Source of the DNA: a virus
UHGV virus genome: UHGV-0096789
Strand: one strand, 5' to 3'
Length of the DNA: 19,581 bases
Part shown: positions 6,915-18,469 of the stretch, one piece after another
Layout of the letters: each line of letters opens with the position of its first letter
How positions within the stretch are numbered: the stretch's first letter is position 1
Notes under the pieces: model-generated
The model's input: the letters and a program-made list of their open reading frames with translations, nothing else
Told to the model about the DNA's origin: nothing
Databases searched by the model: none
Position numbers and translations under genes: made by a program

Positions 6915-7963
6915 TGAAAAAACAAAAACGAAAATATTCCCGCCGCGATGACGGCGTGGAGCTGGCAGAGGCACTGCGCCGCCAGCCGTCGTTAAGCGCC
7001 TTCTCGTTCGACGGCCCTTACGATGCGCACGCGCTCGACCTGCTGGATAACGCATACTGCCTGAGTAATGGCAGATACTATGAAACGCCTGTTAACTGGT
7101 ACGGACTGGCGCGGGCATCCCGGCAGACTTCGTGGCATCAGTCGGCGCTGTACTTTAAACGTAACGCACTACTGGGCTGCTTCATTCCGCACCAGCTGCT
7201 CTCCCGGCAGGCGTTCTCCGCCTTTGCGCTGGACTGGTTTGTCTTCGGGAATGCGTTTCTTGAACTGCGCACCAACAGGCTGGGCGGAAAACTGGAACTG
7301 CGGCACGCGCTGGCAAAATACGTCCGTCGTGGTGTTGAGCCGGATGTGTACTGGTTTGTGCAGACGGGCGAGCAGGACCACGAGTTTCGTCAGGGGCGCG
7401 TCTGTCATGTGCTGAACCCTGACATCAACCAGGAGATGTACGGAATGCCGGAATATCTCGGCGGCCTGCTGTCTGCCAGTCTGTCTCACTCGGCGGACCG
7501 CTTCCGCAAACTCTACTATGACAACGGTTCACACGCAGGCTGCATTATTTACGTGGGGGCGGCACAGGTTGACTGCGAAAGTATGCAGGCTCTCGAAAGA
7601 GCGTTGCAGGGCGCAAGAGGCGGTGGGGCATTCAAAAACCTGCTGCTCCAGGCACCGAACGGCGGGAAGGACGGTGTGCAAATCCTGCCGTTCCAGCAGA
7701 TCACCGCCCGGGATGAGTTCATCAACGTGAAGACAGCGTCGCGCGACGATGTGCTGGCGGCGCATCGCGTGCCGCCACAGTTAATGGGGGCGATGCCTTC
7801 CGGTACGGGTTCTTTTGGTGATGTGGAGAAGGCGGCCAGAGTGTTTGCGATCAACGAACTGATGCCGGTGATGGAGGCGATGAAGCACGTTAATGACTGG
7901 CTGGGCGAGGAGGTGATCCGCTTTAACCCTTACGCACTGCTGGATACCCCGCCCACATCCTGA
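6914..7963 (+). CDS. Q: Portal (capsid vertex) protein (gpQ-like)
   Basis: 349-aa ORF translationally coupled to P; size and position match P2 Q. Confidence 0.9.
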   Translation: MKKQKRKYSRRDDGVELAEALRRQPSLSAFSFDGPYDAHALDLLDNAYCLSNGRYYETPVNWYGLARASRQTSWHQSALYFKRNALLGCFIPHQLLSRQAFSAFALDWFVFGNAFLELRTNRLGGKLELRHALAKYVRRGVEPDVYWFVQTGEQDHEFRQGRVCHVLNPDINQEMYGMPEYLGGLLSASLSHSADRFRKLYYDNGSHAGCIIYVGAAQVDCESMQALERALQGARGGGAFKNLLLQAPNGGKDGVQILPFQQITARDEFINVKTASRDDVLAAHRVPPQLMGAMPSGTGSFGDVEKAARVFAINELMPVMEAMKHVNDWLGEEVIRFNPYALLDTPPTS

Positions 7964-8953: not shown

Positions 8954-9484
8954 ATGAAGAAAGATTCATATCCTTATTTGATTTGCATGACTGTTTCAGT
9001 GCTAGGGATTATTTTCCTCTTTTACTGGTGGAGGGCAGATATCTACAGGATTACATATCTTAATTCGCGTATATCCAATTATTACATCTTGTGTAGTATG
9101 GGTATGTCCTTTTTCTTCTCCTTGTTTCTGGTGAAGAGGGGGGGAGTGAAGCAAAGTGGCTGGAAAGGACTGTCGGCATACCTGAAGGTTTATGCTGGCT
9201 CTTGCATTCTTACAGGGATATTCCTGATTATCCCTCTTATGATGGTGACTTATTTTTTACCAGGAGTAACATCATCATATGTTGCACCGTATGAGTATAC
9301 ATCTGGTAGTTCAAGAAGCTGTTCCGGAGCGTTTGTTGATGATCCCGAACTGCATAAAAATATTCTTATTTGCTATCCGTATGGTAACTATGAATATGAC
9401 AATATTATCTATGTTGAAAAGAAAACTAATGCATTGGGCGTTGTTGTGACGTATGCACAGACTGCACGAGACGATGCTGAATAA
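8954..9484 (+). CDS. Small integral membrane protein (3 predicted TM helices plus ~70-aa soluble C-terminal domain), AT-rich cargo gene
   Basis: 176-aa ORF; hydrophobic segments YLICMTVSVLGIIFLFYWW, YYILCSMGMSFFFSLFLV, VYAGSCILTGIFLIIPLMMVTYFL; visibly much lower GC than flanking phage genes; only ORF on the plus strand in the cargo region. Confidence 0.65.
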   Translation: MKKDSYPYLICMTVSVLGIIFLFYWWRADIYRITYLNSRISNYYILCSMGMSFFFSLFLVKRGGVKQSGWKGLSAYLKVYAGSCILTGIFLIIPLMMVTYFLPGVTSSYVAPYEYTSGSSRSCSGAFVDDPELHKNILICYPYGNYEYDNIIYVEKKTNALGVVVTYAQTARDDAE

Positions 9485-10337: not shown

Positions 10338-11297
10338 TCACTCCCTGTTCATGTCATGGAGTCCATTAACCAGGGCAAACTGTGGCTCCGGTGTTGTGTG
10401 AATGTTTGCGTTGAGGCCGTAAGCGTCATGTACCGCCGGAGCCACAATCTCCGCCCCACCACCAACAACCATCACCCGACCGTACCCCGAAAAACCCGCC
10501 AGTGCGCGGATCACGCGTTGTTTCAGTGTTTCTTCCTTTTCACGAATAACCGCCATCAGGCTGGCGTAATGCGCGTCATTGTGGATGTGCTGGCGCAGCC
10601 AGGCTTCATCGTGGCGATGTTCGATAATGGTACTGGCGATGTGGTGGCTGGTACGCATACCGTTGGTGGCCATCACCGACAGCACGGCATCGGTCATCAG
10701 TGAAACGCCTACGTGTGGATCGCAAAATACCTGGCTGATACCTGCCAGTTGCCCCTGAACCTTTGCCACATCCAGCGTGGTACCGCCCAAATCCACAATC
10801 AGCAGGGATTCAAACGGACTCATGTCAGCCAGTGCCTTAAAGCCTGCCGGAATGGATTCAGGCATAACCCGCACGTTACGGATAGTGAATGCCTCACCGT
10901 TCTGGTACTCCACCGGGCGCATGACGTTCGCTTTTTTGCGGTTGATGTTGGTCATATCCGGCTGTGCGTTTGTGTCGAAATACTCGCTCAGTGGCAGGGT
11001 GACAACCACATCCACTTCCTGTGGCGTAATACCTGATTTGACCAGCGCATGATGAATGGCAATGACATTCACATCGCTGTACTGGTATTGCGTGTCGGTC
11101 GTCCGGACAAAGCGATCGCTGACCGGATCAAAACCATAGCGCACGCCATCAAGCATGTAGTTCGCGGGCTGCGTGCCACCGAACGGCGCAGACCATTCCG
11201 ACTTGAAGCTGTTCGGGCTGATGGCGTTGCGGCGTTCGCCGTTCTCAGTCCATGCCAGCTTGATGTTGGTGGAGCCGTCGTCGATACAAATTTTCAT
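10338..11297 (-). CDS. parM: ParM/StbA-family actin-like ATPase
   Basis: 319-aa ORF with actin-fold signatures shared with R1 ParM: MKICIDDGSTNIKLAW, ISPNSFK, QYSDVNVIAIHHAL, RKKAN, FTIRNVRVMPESIPAG, LLIVDLGGTTLD, GVSLMT, FSGYGRVMVVGGGAE, LVNG; AAGGAAAAG RBS. Confidence 0.9.
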   Translation of the reverse strand: MKICIDDGSTNIKLAWTENGERRNAISPNSFKSEWSAPFGGTQPANYMLDGVRYGFDPVSDRFVRTTDTQYQYSDVNVIAIHHALVKSGITPQEVDVVVTLPLSEYFDTNAQPDMTNINRKKANVMRPVEYQNGEAFTIRNVRVMPESIPAGFKALADMSPFESLLIVDLGGTTLDVAKVQGQLAGISQVFCDPHVGVSLMTDAVLSVMATNGMRTSHHIASTIIEHRHDEAWLRQHIHNDAHYASLMAVIREKEETLKQRVIRALAGFSGYGRVMVVGGGAEIVAPAVHDAYGLNANIHTTPEPQFALVNGLHDMNRE

Positions 11298-11328: not shown

Positions 11329-11440
11329 TTTACGGGATTCTGAAATCCCGCTTTTGCCTGTTTTGTGCGCGCTTCATATATCGCGGCGCGTTTTTTGCTC
11401 ATTTACGGGATTTGTGAATCCCGTTTCTGTCTGTTTTTTG
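11329..11440. repeat. Two ~40-bp direct repeats, each a hairpin core (ACGGGATT-N4/5-AATCCCG) plus T-rich tail, spanning the A 3' end and the A-parM spacer
   Basis: R1 TTTACGGGATTCTGAAATCCCGCTTTTGCCTGTTTTGTG (11329-11367) and R2 TTTACGGGATTTGTGAATCCCGTTTCTGTCTGTTTTTTG (11402-11440); R2 lies inside the A reading frame, R1 between the A stop and parM start. Confidence 0.6.
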
Positions 11441-14214
11441 TTTCCACTGGTCAGGCCACCCCGCAGCAGGTCTGCTTTGCGGCGGGCGCGTTCAGTGGTT
11501 TCACTGATTCTCTGTGCGTGCTCTGCGTCGCGGATGGCGCGCAGCATGTCAGAAAGCACGGTAACGGGTGTTTTCATGGTGTTCTGGTCTTGCTGAAGTG
11601 TGGATGCCAGGCGTGCGGCGGCTTCAGGGTCTGATGCCCCCAGCTGTTCCAGATAGCTGGCGACCGGGTTATGGCGGATCTCCGTGCTGCTTACGCCGTG
11701 ATTACGGCTCAGGCGTTGCCAGAGTTGCGTGATTAGGCCGTCCGGGCGGGTATCCGGTTTGCGTACAATTTCAAATCCCTGCGGTGCAATGATGCTGCCG
11801 TCAACGTACAGACTGCCGCCCCGTAACAGGTGCTGCATCTGCTGTTCACCGATATGCAGGCCGAGAGATTCAGCAGACTCCCGCCATTCTTTAGCGAGTA
11901 ACTCGTGGTTATCAGGCAAAGGTCGCGGCTGTTTGCGGCTCTGTGTCCAGTTCTGCATTTCATCGCTGCTGTTTTTTGCCTGTTTGTCACGCAGCGAACG
12001 CATCAGCGCCCGGCGTTCGTGCCGTTTCAGTGAGCGCATCCATTCATTCACTTCAATGCCGTCAGGAATCTGCGGCCACGGTGCTGGCCGTTCTTCCGGC
12101 TGTTCTGTCCCGCTGTTGTCTGTTTCCTGTACACGGGGACAGTTATTGCCACGAGTCCAAGGGGCGGCAGGGCCGCCCTGAAGGTCAAAACCATTTTCGC
12201 GGGAGCTGTCTTCCGCTTCCGGTTTACGTCTTACCAGCTTCCAGTTATCCGGGTGTGTGCACACACGGGAGGATTCCCCGATGAGTGGTGACCAGATCCC
12301 GTAAATCTGTACACTCTGTTCGCCGTAATCGTTCAGCTCATCTGCGAGGTCGTAGGCGGTGCGAATCAGGTAGTCTTTACGTGGAACAAGTACGCCGCCC
12401 TGTTTCTCAATGTAGGTGGCAAAACATCCGGCATCAGCGGCAGCAAGAACCGCATCCATTGCGTCATCCTTCAGCTGTTGTGGGCCTTCCGGGTTGCGTG
12501 CCATCTGGCTGGCAAGGCGGCGCAGTTCACGCCACACCTGACGGGAGGGGATACCAAAGAACTGGAACTGGCGGACCCGGTGAAGGCGCGCCCAGCCGAT
12601 GGCGCGCTCCACGCTCTCGGCCATTGATTTTCCGGTTTCGTGGTCAACGCGTGGCTTGCCCGTTTTCGGGTCGATACCATCCACGGCGCGGCTGTCCAGG
12701 TTCTTTCCGATGTAGGTGGCGATGTAGCTGGTTGGCGTGCCTTTTGAGCCGTCGACGTACTCCGCTTTAAAACGCGGAGTGATGTCATCGCCCAGCTCGT
12801 GGCGGTCTTCCTGAATGGCAATATCGCAGACGTGGGACACGATGGTTTCAATCTCGTCCGGATGTGCAAAGACCATCATATGCCAGTGCACAGTGCCGTC
12901 ATGGTGAGGCTCCACCGTGCGGATGCCATACCAGCGAAGACCGTCGCGGTTCAGTTTTTTGCGGACCGCCGCAAAAAACGTGTTAACCAGGTAATCGCTG
13001 GAGTCGCGCATGGTGGCCCCGTTCCATTTGGGATTCGGATGACCGTTCTCCGTTGTTGCGTGGTATTTTGACGGGCAGGTGACAGTCAGAAACACCGCTC
13101 TGTCGCCACGGGCTTCGGCCAGAAGTTCCAGCCCCTTCATGGTGGCCATCATTTCTGCCTTACGGTGAACCGGGTTACTTACTCCCGCGTAATAAACCGT
13201 CTCGAGATCAATCGTGAACCCGTCTTCATTTTCCAGCATGAAACTTTTCAGGAAATCGCGAGTTTTCTCGCGCTGTGCGCGAAACTCGCTTAACGCGTCC
13301 TGGCTCAGATAGGGTGATGTTTTTCTGGAAACCAGACAGGCGGCGCGGAGTTGTTCTTCTCTCCACTCGCAACGTAACAGCCACAGTTTGCGTTTCCACC
13401 ATTCCGCACAGGTCAGGCGAAGGATTGCGCCTGGCAGCAGCTCCGTGTCCGGTTCGTTCCTCCGATCTCTATCTGTTGTCAGTGCGTCATAATGTGGAGG
13501 CATGGCGTGCAGGTGTAACGCCATGCGGGCCAGCATCTGATACGCCTTCAGCGTTACATCCATGGTCAGCTCGCCATCAGTCGCGCCAAAGCCATCGCAG
13601 AGTTTTTCGAAGGTGCTGCTGAACATCGCCGCCGTCATGGTGGCCAGCGTCTGTATCTGGTGCTTGTTAAGCTGCGGCAGGTACAGCAAATCATCCAGGC
13701 GTTCGCGTCCGGCAAGGGCGCGATAACCCCGTGTCAGCCAGCGGCTGTCGGTGCGGTCCAGACGTTCGAATATTTTGCGCAGGGTTCCGCGCGCGTAGCC
13801 CTCTGCTGGTCGACTCTTTTTGCCTTTCTGGCGGTCAGATTCCTGCTTCTTACGTAAAAAAGAGAGGCGGCGGCTCAGTGGTTCACGCAGATAAACAGGT
13901 AGTGCCTTTAGTGTGACAAATGCACGGGCCACCGGGTCTTGTTCTGTTGCCCGGCGCTTACTGATGATGCTCTGTGCCAGCTTTTCACGCTGTCCGGCTT
14001 CCTCAAGGGATGCCATGAGTTTTTTACCCATGGCGGATTGTGCGAAAAAGGCTTCCTCCTTCGCTTCCTGTTCTTCCCGTGCCTTTTTGTCCGCCTCAAG
14101 GTAGTAACGGATGGCGCGTTGCAGGTCGGTTTCAGTTTCCTGACTGCGCTCCGTAAATCTGGCCGGATCAATGGCTGGCCGTGGTTCATTCCAGCTCCAT
14201 GCAAACTCACTCAT
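11374..14214 (-). CDS. A: Replication initiation endonuclease (gpA-like rolling-circle initiator), with a long C-terminal extension
   Basis: ORF 11374..14241 (track starts at GTG); first ATG at 14214 overlaps the upstream gene stop (ATGA); conserved core FLTVTCPSKYH...YGIRTVEPHHDGTVHWHMMVF matches remembered P2 A; ~946 aa versus ~760 aa for P2 A. Confidence 0.85.
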   Translation of the reverse strand: MSEFAWSWNEPRPAIDPARFTERSQETETDLQRAIRYYLEADKKAREEQEAKEEAFFAQSAMGKKLMASLEEAGQREKLAQSIISKRRATEQDPVARAFVTLKALPVYLREPLSRRLSFLRKKQESDRQKGKKSRPAEGYARGTLRKIFERLDRTDSRWLTRGYRALAGRERLDDLLYLPQLNKHQIQTLATMTAAMFSSTFEKLCDGFGATDGELTMDVTLKAYQMLARMALHLHAMPPHYDALTTDRDRRNEPDTELLPGAILRLTCAEWWKRKLWLLRCEWREEQLRAACLVSRKTSPYLSQDALSEFRAQREKTRDFLKSFMLENEDGFTIDLETVYYAGVSNPVHRKAEMMATMKGLELLAEARGDRAVFLTVTCPSKYHATTENGHPNPKWNGATMRDSSDYLVNTFFAAVRKKLNRDGLRWYGIRTVEPHHDGTVHWHMMVFAHPDEIETIVSHVCDIAIQEDRHELGDDITPRFKAEYVDGSKGTPTSYIATYIGKNLDSRAVDGIDPKTGKPRVDHETGKSMAESVERAIGWARLHRVRQFQFFGIPSRQVWRELRRLASQMARNPEGPQQLKDDAMDAVLAAADAGCFATYIEKQGGVLVPRKDYLIRTAYDLADELNDYGEQSVQIYGIWSPLIGESSRVCTHPDNWKLVRRKPEAEDSSRENGFDLQGGPAAPWTRGNNCPRVQETDNSGTEQPEERPAPWPQIPDGIEVNEWMRSLKRHERRALMRSLRDKQAKNSSDEMQNWTQSRKQPRPLPDNHELLAKEWRESAESLGLHIGEQQMQHLLRGGSLYVDGSIIAPQGFEIVRKPDTRPDGLITQLWQRLSRNHGVSSTEIRHNPVASYLEQLGASDPEAAARLASTLQQDQNTMKTPVTVLSDMLRAIRDAEHAQRISETTERARRKADLLRGGLTSGNKKQTETGFTNPVNEQKTRRDI

Positions 14215-14600
14215 GGCTGGTATCCCGTCACGTGCTGCCACTCCTGCGAGAAGAGGGCGGAAAGGCGGTTAAATTCAGCGGTGTATTCACTCAGCGAGGC
14301 ACACCCGCCAGCAGTGTGATGCGCCAGCATTGCCGCAAATACGGAGGCCGGGGAGTCGTAATACGCCAGCAGTGATTCGCCGTGTGGTGTCAGGCAGTGC
14401 AACGCCAGCCCGTGTGGTGTGAAGTCCACGCGGTAGCAGTCGTCTACTGTGAAATAAAGGGTGTCCGCATTCTCCGGTTTTGTGGTGCGTGTTCTGTTGT
14501 CACGACCACGGATGTAGAGATCAAATAATCCCTGAAGAACGGGAGCCAGACGGGTGTCCTGTGTGCGCACCCATCTTGTGAAGTCATGAGCGTCAATCAT
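14211..14600 (-). CDS. Hypothetical early protein, 129 aa, translationally coupled to A
   Basis: ORF with stop overlapping the A start; AAAGAGAA upstream of ATG 14600; no family recognised. Confidence 0.5.
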   Translation of the reverse strand: MIDAHDFTRWVRTQDTRLAPVLQGLFDLYIRGRDNRTRTTKPENADTLYFTVDDCYRVDFTPHGLALHCLTPHGESLLAYYDSPASVFAAMLAHHTAGGCASLSEYTAEFNRLSALFSQEWQHVTGYQP

Positions 14601-14672
14601 GCTGCAATTCTCTTTACTACAGATGTGCGAAGGCCTCCCGCCGCAAGGTGCAGGAAAGGCCCGGAACAGGAA

Positions 14673-14903
14673 TTAATTGAGTTTGTTTTGCTGCTGGATG
14701 AGATCCTGAAGAGACAGGAGGTCTTCCGCCAGATAGCTGAATACAGCGGCGCAGTAGTCGGCTGAAATAGTGCTGTTGAGTCTGTGCAATGCGTTGGATT
14801 GCATGATAAAAGCGATGTGCGCAGCGCGGGTGAGTCTGCGGTTGATTTCAGTCTGGATGTGACGACGCGCAGCGTATGCGCGCTGTTGTTTGCGGTTTGC
14901 CAT
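14673..14903 (-). CDS. Hypothetical small basic helical protein, 76 aa
   Basis: ATG 14903 with AAGAGG 8 nt upstream; competes with overlapping 205-aa ORF 14597..15214, which looks like a GC-rich frame artefact. Confidence 0.4.
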   Translation of the reverse strand: MANRKQQRAYAARRHIQTEINRRLTRAAHIAFIMQSNALHRLNSTISADYCAAVFSYLAEDLLSLQDLIQQQNKLN

Positions 14904-15078
14904 GGTGTGGCCTCTTGTGTAGTAAGTTGTGAAAACTCACCATCCAGAGCTGCGAAACTGTGGGTGGCGAGACGTACGAGGTTCGCAGTACCGGCTACAC
15001 AAGAACCCGGCCCGACCGAAGTCGGCCCCGTACGCCCCGCCATAATTCTGGCGCGAAAAAAACGTGGCAATACAGTAC

Positions 15079-15108
15079 GCACAAAAAAACCGCTGGCGCG
15101 GTTGTGCG
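15079..15108 (-). terminator. Minus-strand intrinsic-terminator-like element downstream of orf183
   Basis: On the minus strand: stem CCGC-GCCA-GCGG followed by TTTTTTT, nested in outer inverted repeat CGCACAA/TTGTGCG; ~120 nt after the orf183 stop. Confidence 0.4.
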
Positions 15109-15223
15109 CTTGTGTAGTTAGCAGGCTGCGAAACCCGGCACCCGTTTTATGAGGTGCAGCGGAAATGTAACCTGACTGATTGCGGCATGGCAAGCGGTTT
15201 TTTTGTGTGTACATAGTGGTTAC

Positions 15224-15775
15224 TCAGTCCGGTAGTAGTTCGCAAAGCACGGTATCAGCGGCGGTATATCGTGCGTAAAGCCTGGCGGGGACCCATCTTT
15301 TAAGGGATATCCCGGTCGTGTCCCGGATGTGCTTCCTGATTTCGCTGAATGTCATCCCCTTCTCATCACGCAGTTCAGTTACCAGCTCCACCAGGTGATC
15401 GCTGTATCTGGTTCTGTGGTGGAGTTCCCCGTATTTCCTGAACCGATACCCTCTTTTTCTCAGGTTCAGTTCTACCGTGGATGGCGAGCGCCCCAGCTCA
15501 TTCGCGAGTTCCCGGATGGTTTTTGTGTGGCGATTCCTGATGAGCATGCTGAGTTCTTTTGTACTCAGTGGAGTTTGTTTGGCGTGAATAACCCCCTGAG
15601 AGAGCAAAAGACGGATGCGGCTTCGTATTGCTGACTCGGTTCTCTGAAAATGCTTTGTCAGCTCCGGCGCTGTGTGGGAGTGGTATAACGTGGCTAAAAG
15701 TTCATCCTCCTGCTGTGTCCATGGCTTTACATGTGCCGGAGCCACACCAGGCGTACCCATTGGTTTGAGTTTCAT
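15224..15775 (-). CDS. Putative DNA-binding protein with three HTH-like repeats, 183 aa
   Basis: AAGGGAG RBS before ATG 15775; three similar segments (KPWTQQEDELLATLY...TESAIRSRIRLL; LSTKELSMLIRNRHTKTIRELANELGRSPSTVELNLRKRGY; LVELVTELRDEKGMTFSEIRKHIRD) suggest repeated HTH/Myb-like modules; assignment by motif only. Confidence 0.55.
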   Translation of the reverse strand: MKLKPMGTPGVAPAHVKPWTQQEDELLATLYHSHTAPELTKHFQRTESAIRSRIRLLLSQGVIHAKQTPLSTKELSMLIRNRHTKTIRELANELGRSPSTVELNLRKRGYRFRKYGELHHRTRYSDHLVELVTELRDEKGMTFSEIRKHIRDTTGISLKRWVPARLYARYTAADTVLCELLPD

Positions 15776-18169: not shown

Positions 18170-18469
18170 ATGTCAACTACCGTAGCTATGAAAATTCGCA
18201 TCATGCGGAAGTCAGAAATGCTTACGCAAGAAAAAATGGCAGAGATTACTGGGCTTACTCTTGCTGCATTAAGGCAATATGAGCAAGGACGAAATGAACC
18301 CAACCTTGAGTCAACAAAAAAGCTTCTGAAAGCTCCCATGTTCCGTAAGTACCGCGACTGGTTTCTGTTTGATGAAGTTGACCCCAAGACCGGGCAGGTT
18401 GTGCCGGCTCTCGCACACATTGGGCAAGGCGAAGCGGAATTATCCCGCTCCGGCAAGAAAACTGGTTAA
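18170..18469 (+). CDS. C: Immunity repressor (P2 C-like)
   Basis: 99-aa ORF resembling remembered P2 C (same length; IRIMRKSE..., PALAH.GQ, C-terminal SGKKTG); immediately upstream of int as in P2. Confidence 0.85.
   Translation: MSTTVAMKIRIMRKSEMLTQEKMAEITGLTLAALRQYEQGRNEPNLESTKKLLKAPMFRKYRDWFLFDEVDPKTGQVVPALAHIGQGEAELSRSGKKTG

Follow-up and report, generated by a model that had tools for sequence, protein, structure and literature searches.

Results

Two structured RNA elements occupy a gap in the early operon of a P88-like prophage

We analyzed a 19,581-nt stretch of the virus genome UHGV-0096789 (hereafter the window; 19.6 kb), the source of which is a P88-like prophage (Xuanwuvirus, Peduoviridae; P2-family), with Citrobacter phage Shae_phiSM, Escherichia phages PhiR44_2 and vB_EcoM-569R5, and P88 as its nearest phage records. 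The minus strand carries the early operon, while the plus strand carries the C repressor gene (18170-18469) and the integrase gene. On the minus strand the cox-side genes and orf183 are followed by a 320-bp gap (14904-15223) and then by orf76, orf129 and the replication gene A. The original prediction had described this gap as non-coding, had noted repeated 9-mers, a CTGCGAA inverted repeat and a minus-strand terminator in it, and had proposed a separately regulated promoter for orf76-orf129-A, an antitermination site or a small RNA (sRNA) locus. The features in and around the gap are given here in the order of minus-strand transcription, with box labels that follow the P1 GenBank record:

15775..15224, minus strand: orf183, a helix-turn-helix (HTH) protein, the gene just 5' of the gap
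15212..15190, minus strand: upstream arm GUACACACAAAAAAACCGCUUGC, an inverted repeat, 21/23 complementary to the terminator 3' half, U-tract and tail
15193..15164, minus strand: internal sigma-70-like promoter, named PisrK here (TTGCCA-18 nt-TACATT, from a consensus scan)
15157..15083, minus strand: IsrK/seqA/c4-a1b1-type RNA (Rfam RF01394 isrK, 66.5 bits, full-length model)
15132..15126, minus strand: box a1, UUCGCAG, in the loop and 3' stem side of IsrK hairpin 2, complementary to C4 a'
15117..15109, minus strand: box b1, CUACACAAG, in the unpaired IsrK linker, complementary to the C4 b' loop
15103..15083, minus strand: IsrK intrinsic terminator, stem AACCGC/GCGGUU, loop GCCA, then U7
15047..14960, minus strand: C4/CI-type antisense RNA (Rfam RF01695, 83.2 bits, full-length model)
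15004..14995, minus strand: box b', UCUUGUGUAG, the C4 hairpin loop
14988..14982, minus strand: box a', CUGCGAA, single-stranded in the C4 junction
14956..14950, minus strand: target a2, UUCGCAG, 3 nt after the C4 3' end
14922..14913, minus strand: target b2, CUACACAAGA, overlapping the orf76 Shine-Dalgarno sequence AAGAGG (14916..14911), with the ATG at 14903
14903..14673, minus strand: orf76, an epsilon-like 'derepression' protein, the gene predicted to be gated directly by C4
14600..14211, minus strand: orf129, no family assignment
14241..11374, minus strand: replication gene A (955 aa; Pfam Phage_GPA, 430 bits)

Of the options raised earlier, the sRNA locus is borne out by two Rfam families that match well above their gathering scores (isrK RF01394, 50; C4 RF01695, 45; for comparison, c4-a1b1 RF03163, 46.7). 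The C4 match covers model positions 1-87 of 87 (E = 5e-17), and the element folded alone reproduces the family consensus (-47.7 kcal/mol, z = -4.5), in which a closing stem of 17 bp encloses a UUCG hairpin and a second hairpin whose loop has 12 nt. Boxes b' (in the 12-nt loop) and a' (in the junction) are both unpaired in this minimum-energy fold, in keeping with the structure of a C4 member, and the two boxes are complementary to sites upstream and downstream of the RNA, the downstream site lying over the ribosome-binding site of the first gene. In the C4 family a mature RNA of ~77 nt arises by RNase P processing, and repression combines a translational block with Rho-dependent termination; pointers to such processing and polarity in the window are indirect, namely a stem that resembles an acceptor stem, with ACCC after it, and the high C content of the orf76 mRNA.

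The upstream element matches isrK over its full length, and c4-a1b1 overlaps this match below its cut-off (20.4 bits), so that membership comes via isrK alone. The P1 upstream element shows the reverse (c4-a1b1, 51 bits; isrK, 35 bits), and we therefore take both Rfam families to describe the same upstream element. Its minimum-energy fold consists of two hairpins, an unpaired linker and a terminator hairpin; the latter is the minus-strand hairpin that had been placed within 15079-15108, and we located it as AACCGCGCCAGCGGTT (15103..15088) followed by T7. In the ensemble of an RNA starting at 15157, the terminator core pairs form with a probability of ~1 (0.82-1.0; outermost pair 0.2). PisrK ends 7 nt before isrK model position 1 and has a predicted start near 15157. 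Its -10 hexamer aligns, via the c4-a1b1 model, with the annotated P1c4 (P51b) -10 of P1, its position is that of the P4 hexamers TTGCCT...TATAGT, and both of its hexamers are conserved in 23 relatives; the separately regulated promoter that had been proposed is thus supported as far as position and homology go. The element therefore stands in the context of an IsrK, with a promoter-like site just upstream, a1 and b1 within it, an intrinsic terminator at its end and C4 downstream after a spacer of 35 nt. An Hfq-bound, stable, trans-acting IsrK is known only for Gifsy-1 (PMC4825925).

A second promoter-like site lies on the minus strand at 15070..15042 (TTGCCA-17-AATTAT), with its -10 hexamer at the conserved 5' flank of C4. 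We regard it as probably unused, given that its -35 hexamer is not conserved (relatives carry TTGCTA, TCGCCA, TCGTCA or CTGTCA) and that transcription from it would begin within the closing stem of C4.

The repeats are RNA pairing boxes that co-vary across relatives

We recovered the three 9-mers CTTGTGTAG at 14914-14922 (plus strand), 14995-15003 (minus strand) and 15109-15117 (plus strand), as predicted, within 204 bp of the gap. Across the 19.6-kb window the 9-mer occurs four times against 0.10 expected, and none of 200 shuffles reached four copies, which rejects a chance origin for it. The fourth exact copy (9088-9096, plus strand) is isolated, with AT-rich surroundings and no a-box near, and is probably a chance occurrence; it would be b'-like if the plus strand were transcribed. 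The three CTGCGAA 7-mers likewise lie where they had been placed (14950-14956, plus strand; 14982-14988, minus strand; 15126-15132, plus strand), and the direct pair is part of a longer repeat, the 10-mer GCTGCGAAAC, at 14949-14958 and 15125-15134. By count CTGCGAA is not enriched (five window copies vs. 4.15 expected), and its significance derives from covariation, not from count.

A pattern that fixed the invariant C4 core and left the loop free, run against viral contigs, gave 120 loci with 62 distinct loop/junction combinations. Each locus carries, at fixed offsets on both sides of C4, stretches complementary to its own loop (median 8 nt upstream and 9 nt downstream) and to its own junction box (7 nt), whereas controls with boxes taken from other loci gave 5 nt only; b-box matches of at least 8 nt occurred in 55-71% of own-locus comparisons vs. 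~1% of controls. We also aligned 23 distinct P88-like versions of the gap. Their backbone is near-invariant, and variation is concentrated in the six boxes, where it is about four times higher (mean minor-allele fraction 0.243 in box columns vs. 0.057 elsewhere). Between C4 and a2/b2, 97.4% of cells are paired and compensatory changes occur in 11 of 17 pairs (a' vs. a2: 5/7 pairs, with 100% of cells paired; b' vs. b2: 6/10 pairs), with a covariation score of 0.64 vs. 0.14 when shuffled (0/500 shuffles reach 0.64) and only 41-53% pairing in slid controls. Between C4 and a1/b1, 99.2% of cells are paired and 12 of 16 pairs show compensatory changes (a1 vs. a': 5/7 pairs, with 99.4% of cells paired; b1 vs. 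b': 7/9 pairs). The three sets of boxes thus co-vary across relatives, and their pairing is therefore under selection. The 23 relatives comprise 7-8 a-types and 10-11 b-types, and a and b reassort; the boxes behave as exchangeable specificity determinants.

In one P88-like locus (L015:5137-5464, IMGVR_UViG_2547132417_000016) the a1 box TTCTCAC mismatches its own a' box GTGGAAA, which is matched by the a2 box TTTCCAC; this locus looks like a recombinant whose IsrK and C4 have different a-specificities.

Direct and inverted repeats in an intergenic region beside genes for DNA-binding proteins could instead be DNA sites, operators or iterons, for a phage protein such as the HTH protein of orf183. 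We find this highly improbable: of the three copies, the middle one is in every case reverse-complementary to the outer two and sits in a loop or junction of a structured RNA, covariation of the boxes follows antiparallel base pairing with G-U pairs included, the flanking genes differ among relatives, and the equivalent P1 sites are assigned to RNA binding in the P1 record. The original prediction did not recognize that its 9-mers and 7-mers are the RNA-RNA pairing boxes of a c4/CI-type antisense system, and it overlooked that one copy lies over the orf76 ribosome-binding site. As RNA pairing boxes, the repeats are therefore not DNA sites and not primarily signals for the expression of A.

The gap is non-coding although it matches a protein family

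Two open reading frames (ORFs) cross the gap, one of 205 aa on the minus strand (15214..14597) and one of 122 aa on the plus strand (14784-15152). The first spans both RNA genes, so that an Ash annotation overlies IsrK and C4 here, and it raises the alternative that the gap encodes an 'Ash family protein' and that the repeats are incidental: the ORF exists, it scores 27.3 bits against Pfam Phage_ASH (cut-off 26), and PGAP places an 'ash family protein' pseudo-CDS (coding sequence) on the gap. However, the ORF shares bases with orf76 in another frame, indels in close relatives disrupt the reading frames across the gap (net +4 in locus L020), PGAP itself flags the CDS as incomplete, the same bases match two structured-RNA families with E = 1e-14 to 1e-17, and the variation sits in complementary boxes and not at codon positions. 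We accordingly reject a protein-coding gap on the strength of the indels, the incomplete flag and the RNA-family matches, and consider it scarcely credible; the Phage_ASH match is probably a translation of the IsrK/C4 RNA genes. The earlier description of the gap as non-coding holds in the relevant sense, since the two RNA families account for the region fully and the ORFs are broken in relatives.

The first gene after the cassette is a homologue of the P4 anti-repressor epsilon

Where both a target box and an ORF could be found (~120 loci), the distance from the downstream b box to the start of the first ORF is 7-12 nt in most cases. This ORF encodes a Rha-type or a Bro-N/P22-AR-type anti-repressor in lambdoid contexts, an ORF of ~64 aa in P4-like elements, and a Derepression-family protein in the P88-like group and at one further locus. 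One contig (IMGVR_UViG_2526164649_000023; L070:7051-7082 and 7920-7951) has two C4 cassettes ~870 nt apart with different loops, each followed by a Rha-like ORF of ~181 aa, and thus carries tandem RNA-gated anti-repressor modules.

In the window this first gene is orf76. By BLASTP it is 32% identical to P4 epsilon over 53 aa (E = 5e-9), and an alignment of nine P88-like orthologues gave a 96.2% probability against epsilon in hhalign (E = 2.3e-9). Against Pfam PF25738 Derepression (cut-off 27) orf76 of the window scores 23.2 bits and its P88 orthologue, which is 67% identical, scores 31.8 bits; PGAP names the orthologue 'derepression protein'. On these comparisons we identify orf76 as a homologue of the P4 anti-repressor epsilon, a likeness that the original prediction had also missed. 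P4 epsilon derepresses P2 by acting on the P2 C repressor. The C protein of the window is 43% identical to P2 C, so a plausible target of orf76 is encoded in cis, and C is a plausible binding partner on this similarity. Searches of Pfam, PHROGs and NCBIfam gave no Icd or Ant family match for either orf76 or orf129; the cassette works like immI, yet it is not an immI operon.

Further downstream, orf129 has no match in Pfam or NCBIfam, and a comparison showed no relation to P4 orf151/orf106 or P2 orf81/orf83, which rejects it as a relative of these. Neither a sigma-70-like promoter nor a terminator was found in 14100-14720, and no promoter-like site was found between the cassette and A. With 77 C and 42 G, the orf76 mRNA is rich in C and poor in G, a composition compatible with Rho loading when it is untranslated. 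The GPA domain of the window's A comprises residues 194-518; A has 955 aa vs. 761 aa for P2 gpA (by the coordinates of the P2 record). A full-length ParM actin-like partition gene (10338-11297, minus strand) lies immediately downstream of A. The premise that P2-like early operons run contiguously from cox to A proved only roughly right, in that the P2 record annotates a putative rho-independent terminator after gene B, between B and orf80 (L124:2981-3008; record 26980-27007), so that the early operon of P2 also has an internal terminator-like signal. No tRNA or tmRNA was found in the window.

The locus shares its design with P4, P1 and Gifsy-1

The equation of IsrK with seqA and of C4 with CI has been made before, and the system has been noted in P1, P7, N15 and some lambdoid prophages (PMC3632133). 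P4 contains both Rfam families in the same order and on the same strand as the window (isrK, 60.8 bits; C4, 74.9 bits), in the layout seqA - CI RNA/seqB - seqC - kil/eta ORF - epsilon - orf151 - orf106 - alpha, with PLE in front. Like the window, P4 has promoter-like hexamers directly before its IsrK-like element; we take these hexamers (TTGCCT...TATAGT) to be PLE, which is not annotated in the P4 record. P4 and the window also share a/b boxes upstream, within and downstream of the RNA, a downstream b box over the Shine-Dalgarno sequence, an epsilon homologue and a later replication gene. The boxes themselves differ: P4 has GUGAGAA and UUCACAGG in the IsrK-like element, complementary boxes in CI/C4, and downstream GUGAGAA and UUCACAGGAGG, which lies over the Shine-Dalgarno sequence, followed by a 65-aa ORF, epsilon, two more ORFs and alpha. 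In the window, unlike in P4, epsilon-like orf76 comes first after the target with no 65-aa ORF, the spacer between IsrK and C4 is shorter (35 nt vs. ~107 nt), the replication gene is of the GPA type and not an alpha primase, the host element is a full P2-family phage and not a satellite, and the cassette lies mid-operon with an extra arm complementary to the terminator.

The immI region of P1/P7 (P51a/b - a1 b1 - c4 - a2 b2 - icd - ant1/2) is near-identical to the window in box order and spacing: in both P1 and the window a2 starts 3 nt after C4, and b2 ends 10 nt before the start codon (the icd ATG and the orf76 ATG, respectively). In P1 and the window alike, C4 exceeds its gathering score and an anti-repressor is encoded in the gated operon; according to the P1 record, translation of icd/ant is repressed at a2/b2, where C4 binds. 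The two differ in the better-scoring family of the upstream element (c4-a1b1 in P1, isrK in the window), and the window, unlike P1, has no icd/ant homologues, its orf76 being epsilon-like, and no evident C1-type operator; immI is a separate operon, whereas the cassette in the window is embedded between early genes and the replication gene.

The experimental precedent for an upstream RNA that modulates the translation of a downstream gene is isrK - orf45 (STnc1160) - anrP of Gifsy-1 in Salmonella, in which IsrK ends at a leaky terminator and read-through carries the C4-like region and the anti-repressor (PMC4825925). There, pairing in trans between the short IsrK and the downstream C4-containing segment turns on the anti-repressor AnrP; the locus was interpreted in terms of a 45-codon ORF that covers the C4 region and of translational coupling to the Rha/Ant-type anti-repressor (PMC4825925). 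In the window, by contrast, the equivalent AUG opens a long, out-of-frame, non-conserved ORF, and the gated protein is epsilon-like.

The gap is very probably a self-contained RNA immunity cassette

Taking these lines together, we assign the gap with high confidence to the P1 immI/P4 CI type of RNA immunity cassette, here self-contained and within a P88-like early operon; the observations of the original prediction are confirmed, and its interpretation is partly supported. By analogy with the known systems (for P4, on PMC3632133, PMC4825925 and general background), the internal promoter would fire in a lysogen and yield a short IsrK together with a read-through precursor that would be processed to stable C4. 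C4 would then pair with a2/b2 on transcripts that reach orf76 and block ribosome binding, and the untranslated RNA would be terminated by Rho, so that the epsilon-like protein, orf129 and A would stay silent. IsrK would act as a target mimic that competes for or sequesters C4, with the IsrK:C4 ratio setting the switch. On this reading C4 likely blocks orf76 translation, while we infer that orf129 and A would be kept off through polarity, from the lack of a promoter-like site between the cassette and A and from the C-rich orf76 mRNA.

A variant of this explanation, in which the identities of the RNAs are unchanged, holds that the main job of the cassette is P4-style replication control: termination by C4 would keep A off in the lysogen and upon homoimmune superinfection, and orf76 would be a mere sensed leader ORF. 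In its favor, A lies downstream without an intervening promoter-like site, P4 uses the same RNAs against expression of its replication gene alpha, in the parallel order RNA-epsilon-x-replication gene, and the hypervariable, reassorting a/b boxes resemble immunity specificities. However, orf76 is kept as an epsilon homologue in every aligned P88-like relative, which is not expected of an arbitrary leader, the gated gene in other lineages is an anti-repressor with no replication gene behind it, and polarity onto A would have to operate as it does in the known systems. We regard replication control as a rather unlikely main function.

Passage of the IsrK terminator

If the RNA immunity cassette operates within the early operon, transcripts from upstream must pass the IsrK terminator, and the upstream arm offers a speculative route: transcripts from the early promoter (Pe), which contain the arm, would cross the terminator, whereas those from the internal promoter would stop there. 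The arm starts 11 nt past the orf183 stop codon and includes an A-tract just 5' of the PisrK -35 hexamer and TTGC, the first four bases of that hexamer. In an RNA starting at 15223, pairing of the arm with the terminator tail is part of the minimum-energy fold and is favored by ~10 kcal/mol at equilibrium, and the probability of the terminator is 0. The arm occurs at a fixed offset in all P88-like relatives, with any upstream gene (z = 4.0-8.6), and the divergent relative L107 keeps the complementarity though both sides differ. It was not found in P4-like and lambdoid cassettes by either a hairpin-based search or a search with a looser definition; the hairpin-based search also missed the P88-like group.

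Several points weigh against our explanation, and some of them concern this arm. For promoter use, processing, RNA stability, Rho polarity and the direction in which IsrK acts, we extrapolate from P1, P4 and Gifsy-1; the orf76 protein of the window scores under the Pfam gathering cut-off; and the wiring of P4 is not identical, the first gene after its targets being the 65-aa ORF and not epsilon. The arm:tail helix that may allow passage of early transcripts is conserved but shows no covariation (15/23 pairs are invariant), and the arm could equally be a UP-element-like A-tract or part of a plus-strand hairpin with U7. The antitermination site that had been suggested is thus a possibility, with a conserved arm complementary to the terminator tail and no covariation, and we say only that the predicted pairing may let early-promoter transcripts read through.

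The corresponding alternative is that the arm is no antiterminator, that it serves as a UP-element-like A-tract or as a plus-strand terminator, and that the IsrK terminator is simply leaky. An A7 run lies at approximately -46 to -40 from the predicted PisrK start, and the same terminator is read through in P4 and Gifsy-1 with no arm (PMC4825925). On the plus strand, 15174-15205 folds as CUGAUUGC-GGCAUG-GCAAGCGG (-9.2 kcal/mol) followed by U7, overlapping the internal promoter, a predicted hairpin that is a possible terminator of transcription antisense to the early operon. Against this, the arm complementarity (19/21 to 21/23, z up to 8.6) is far over chance and reaches beyond the A-tract, L107 retains it with both sides changed, the arm:tail pairing would abolish the terminator, and the arm is found only where the cassette sits within an operon. 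Weighing these, we consider the leaky-terminator alternative quite possible, if slightly short of probable.

Distribution and implications of the cassette

The 320-bp gap is present in 1283 of 5426 complete E. coli genomes (24%), nearly always on the chromosome. In E. coli genomes (RefSeq/PGAP) it carries no annotation or else lies under a pseudo-CDS for an 'ash family protein', and in phage records the region is empty or bears a hypothetical protein, so that a common pair of regulatory RNAs systematically escapes standard annotation. The best full-length match to the gap (98.4%) comes from a prophage of E. coli JNE151685 (L125; NZ_AP027258.1 2101925-2111244) whose repressor-side genes differ, with a 134-aa HTH protein in place of the 99-aa C. 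The RNA cassette is near-identical there and the repressor side is different; assortment of the RNA cassette is therefore independent of that of the protein immunity region.

The regulatory principle has long been known, and the particulars of this locus are its P2-family host, epsilon as the direct target and the place between the early genes and A; our literature search found no description of a CI/seqA switch with an epsilon homologue in P2-/P88-like helper-type phages. With its near-invariant backbone and hypervariable, co-varying boxes, the cassette is a natural example of programmable RNA specificity, and it bears on the exchange of control modules between satellites and helpers. P88 was obtained from a lysogen by mitomycin C treatment (PMC5285337), and the cassette possibly bears on the recovery of P88-like phages after such treatment. 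Finally, we offer as a tentative and, in our judgment, unlikely extension that P88-like phages possess a second layer of immunity, based on RNA, which they took from P4-type satellites or have in common with them, and in which an a x b code independent of C would gate the epsilon-like protein and A, with a promoter-dependent antiterminator arm. If this were true, whether a resident helper silences an incoming satellite, or vice versa, could turn on the match or mismatch of their codes, given that both rely on one RNA system.

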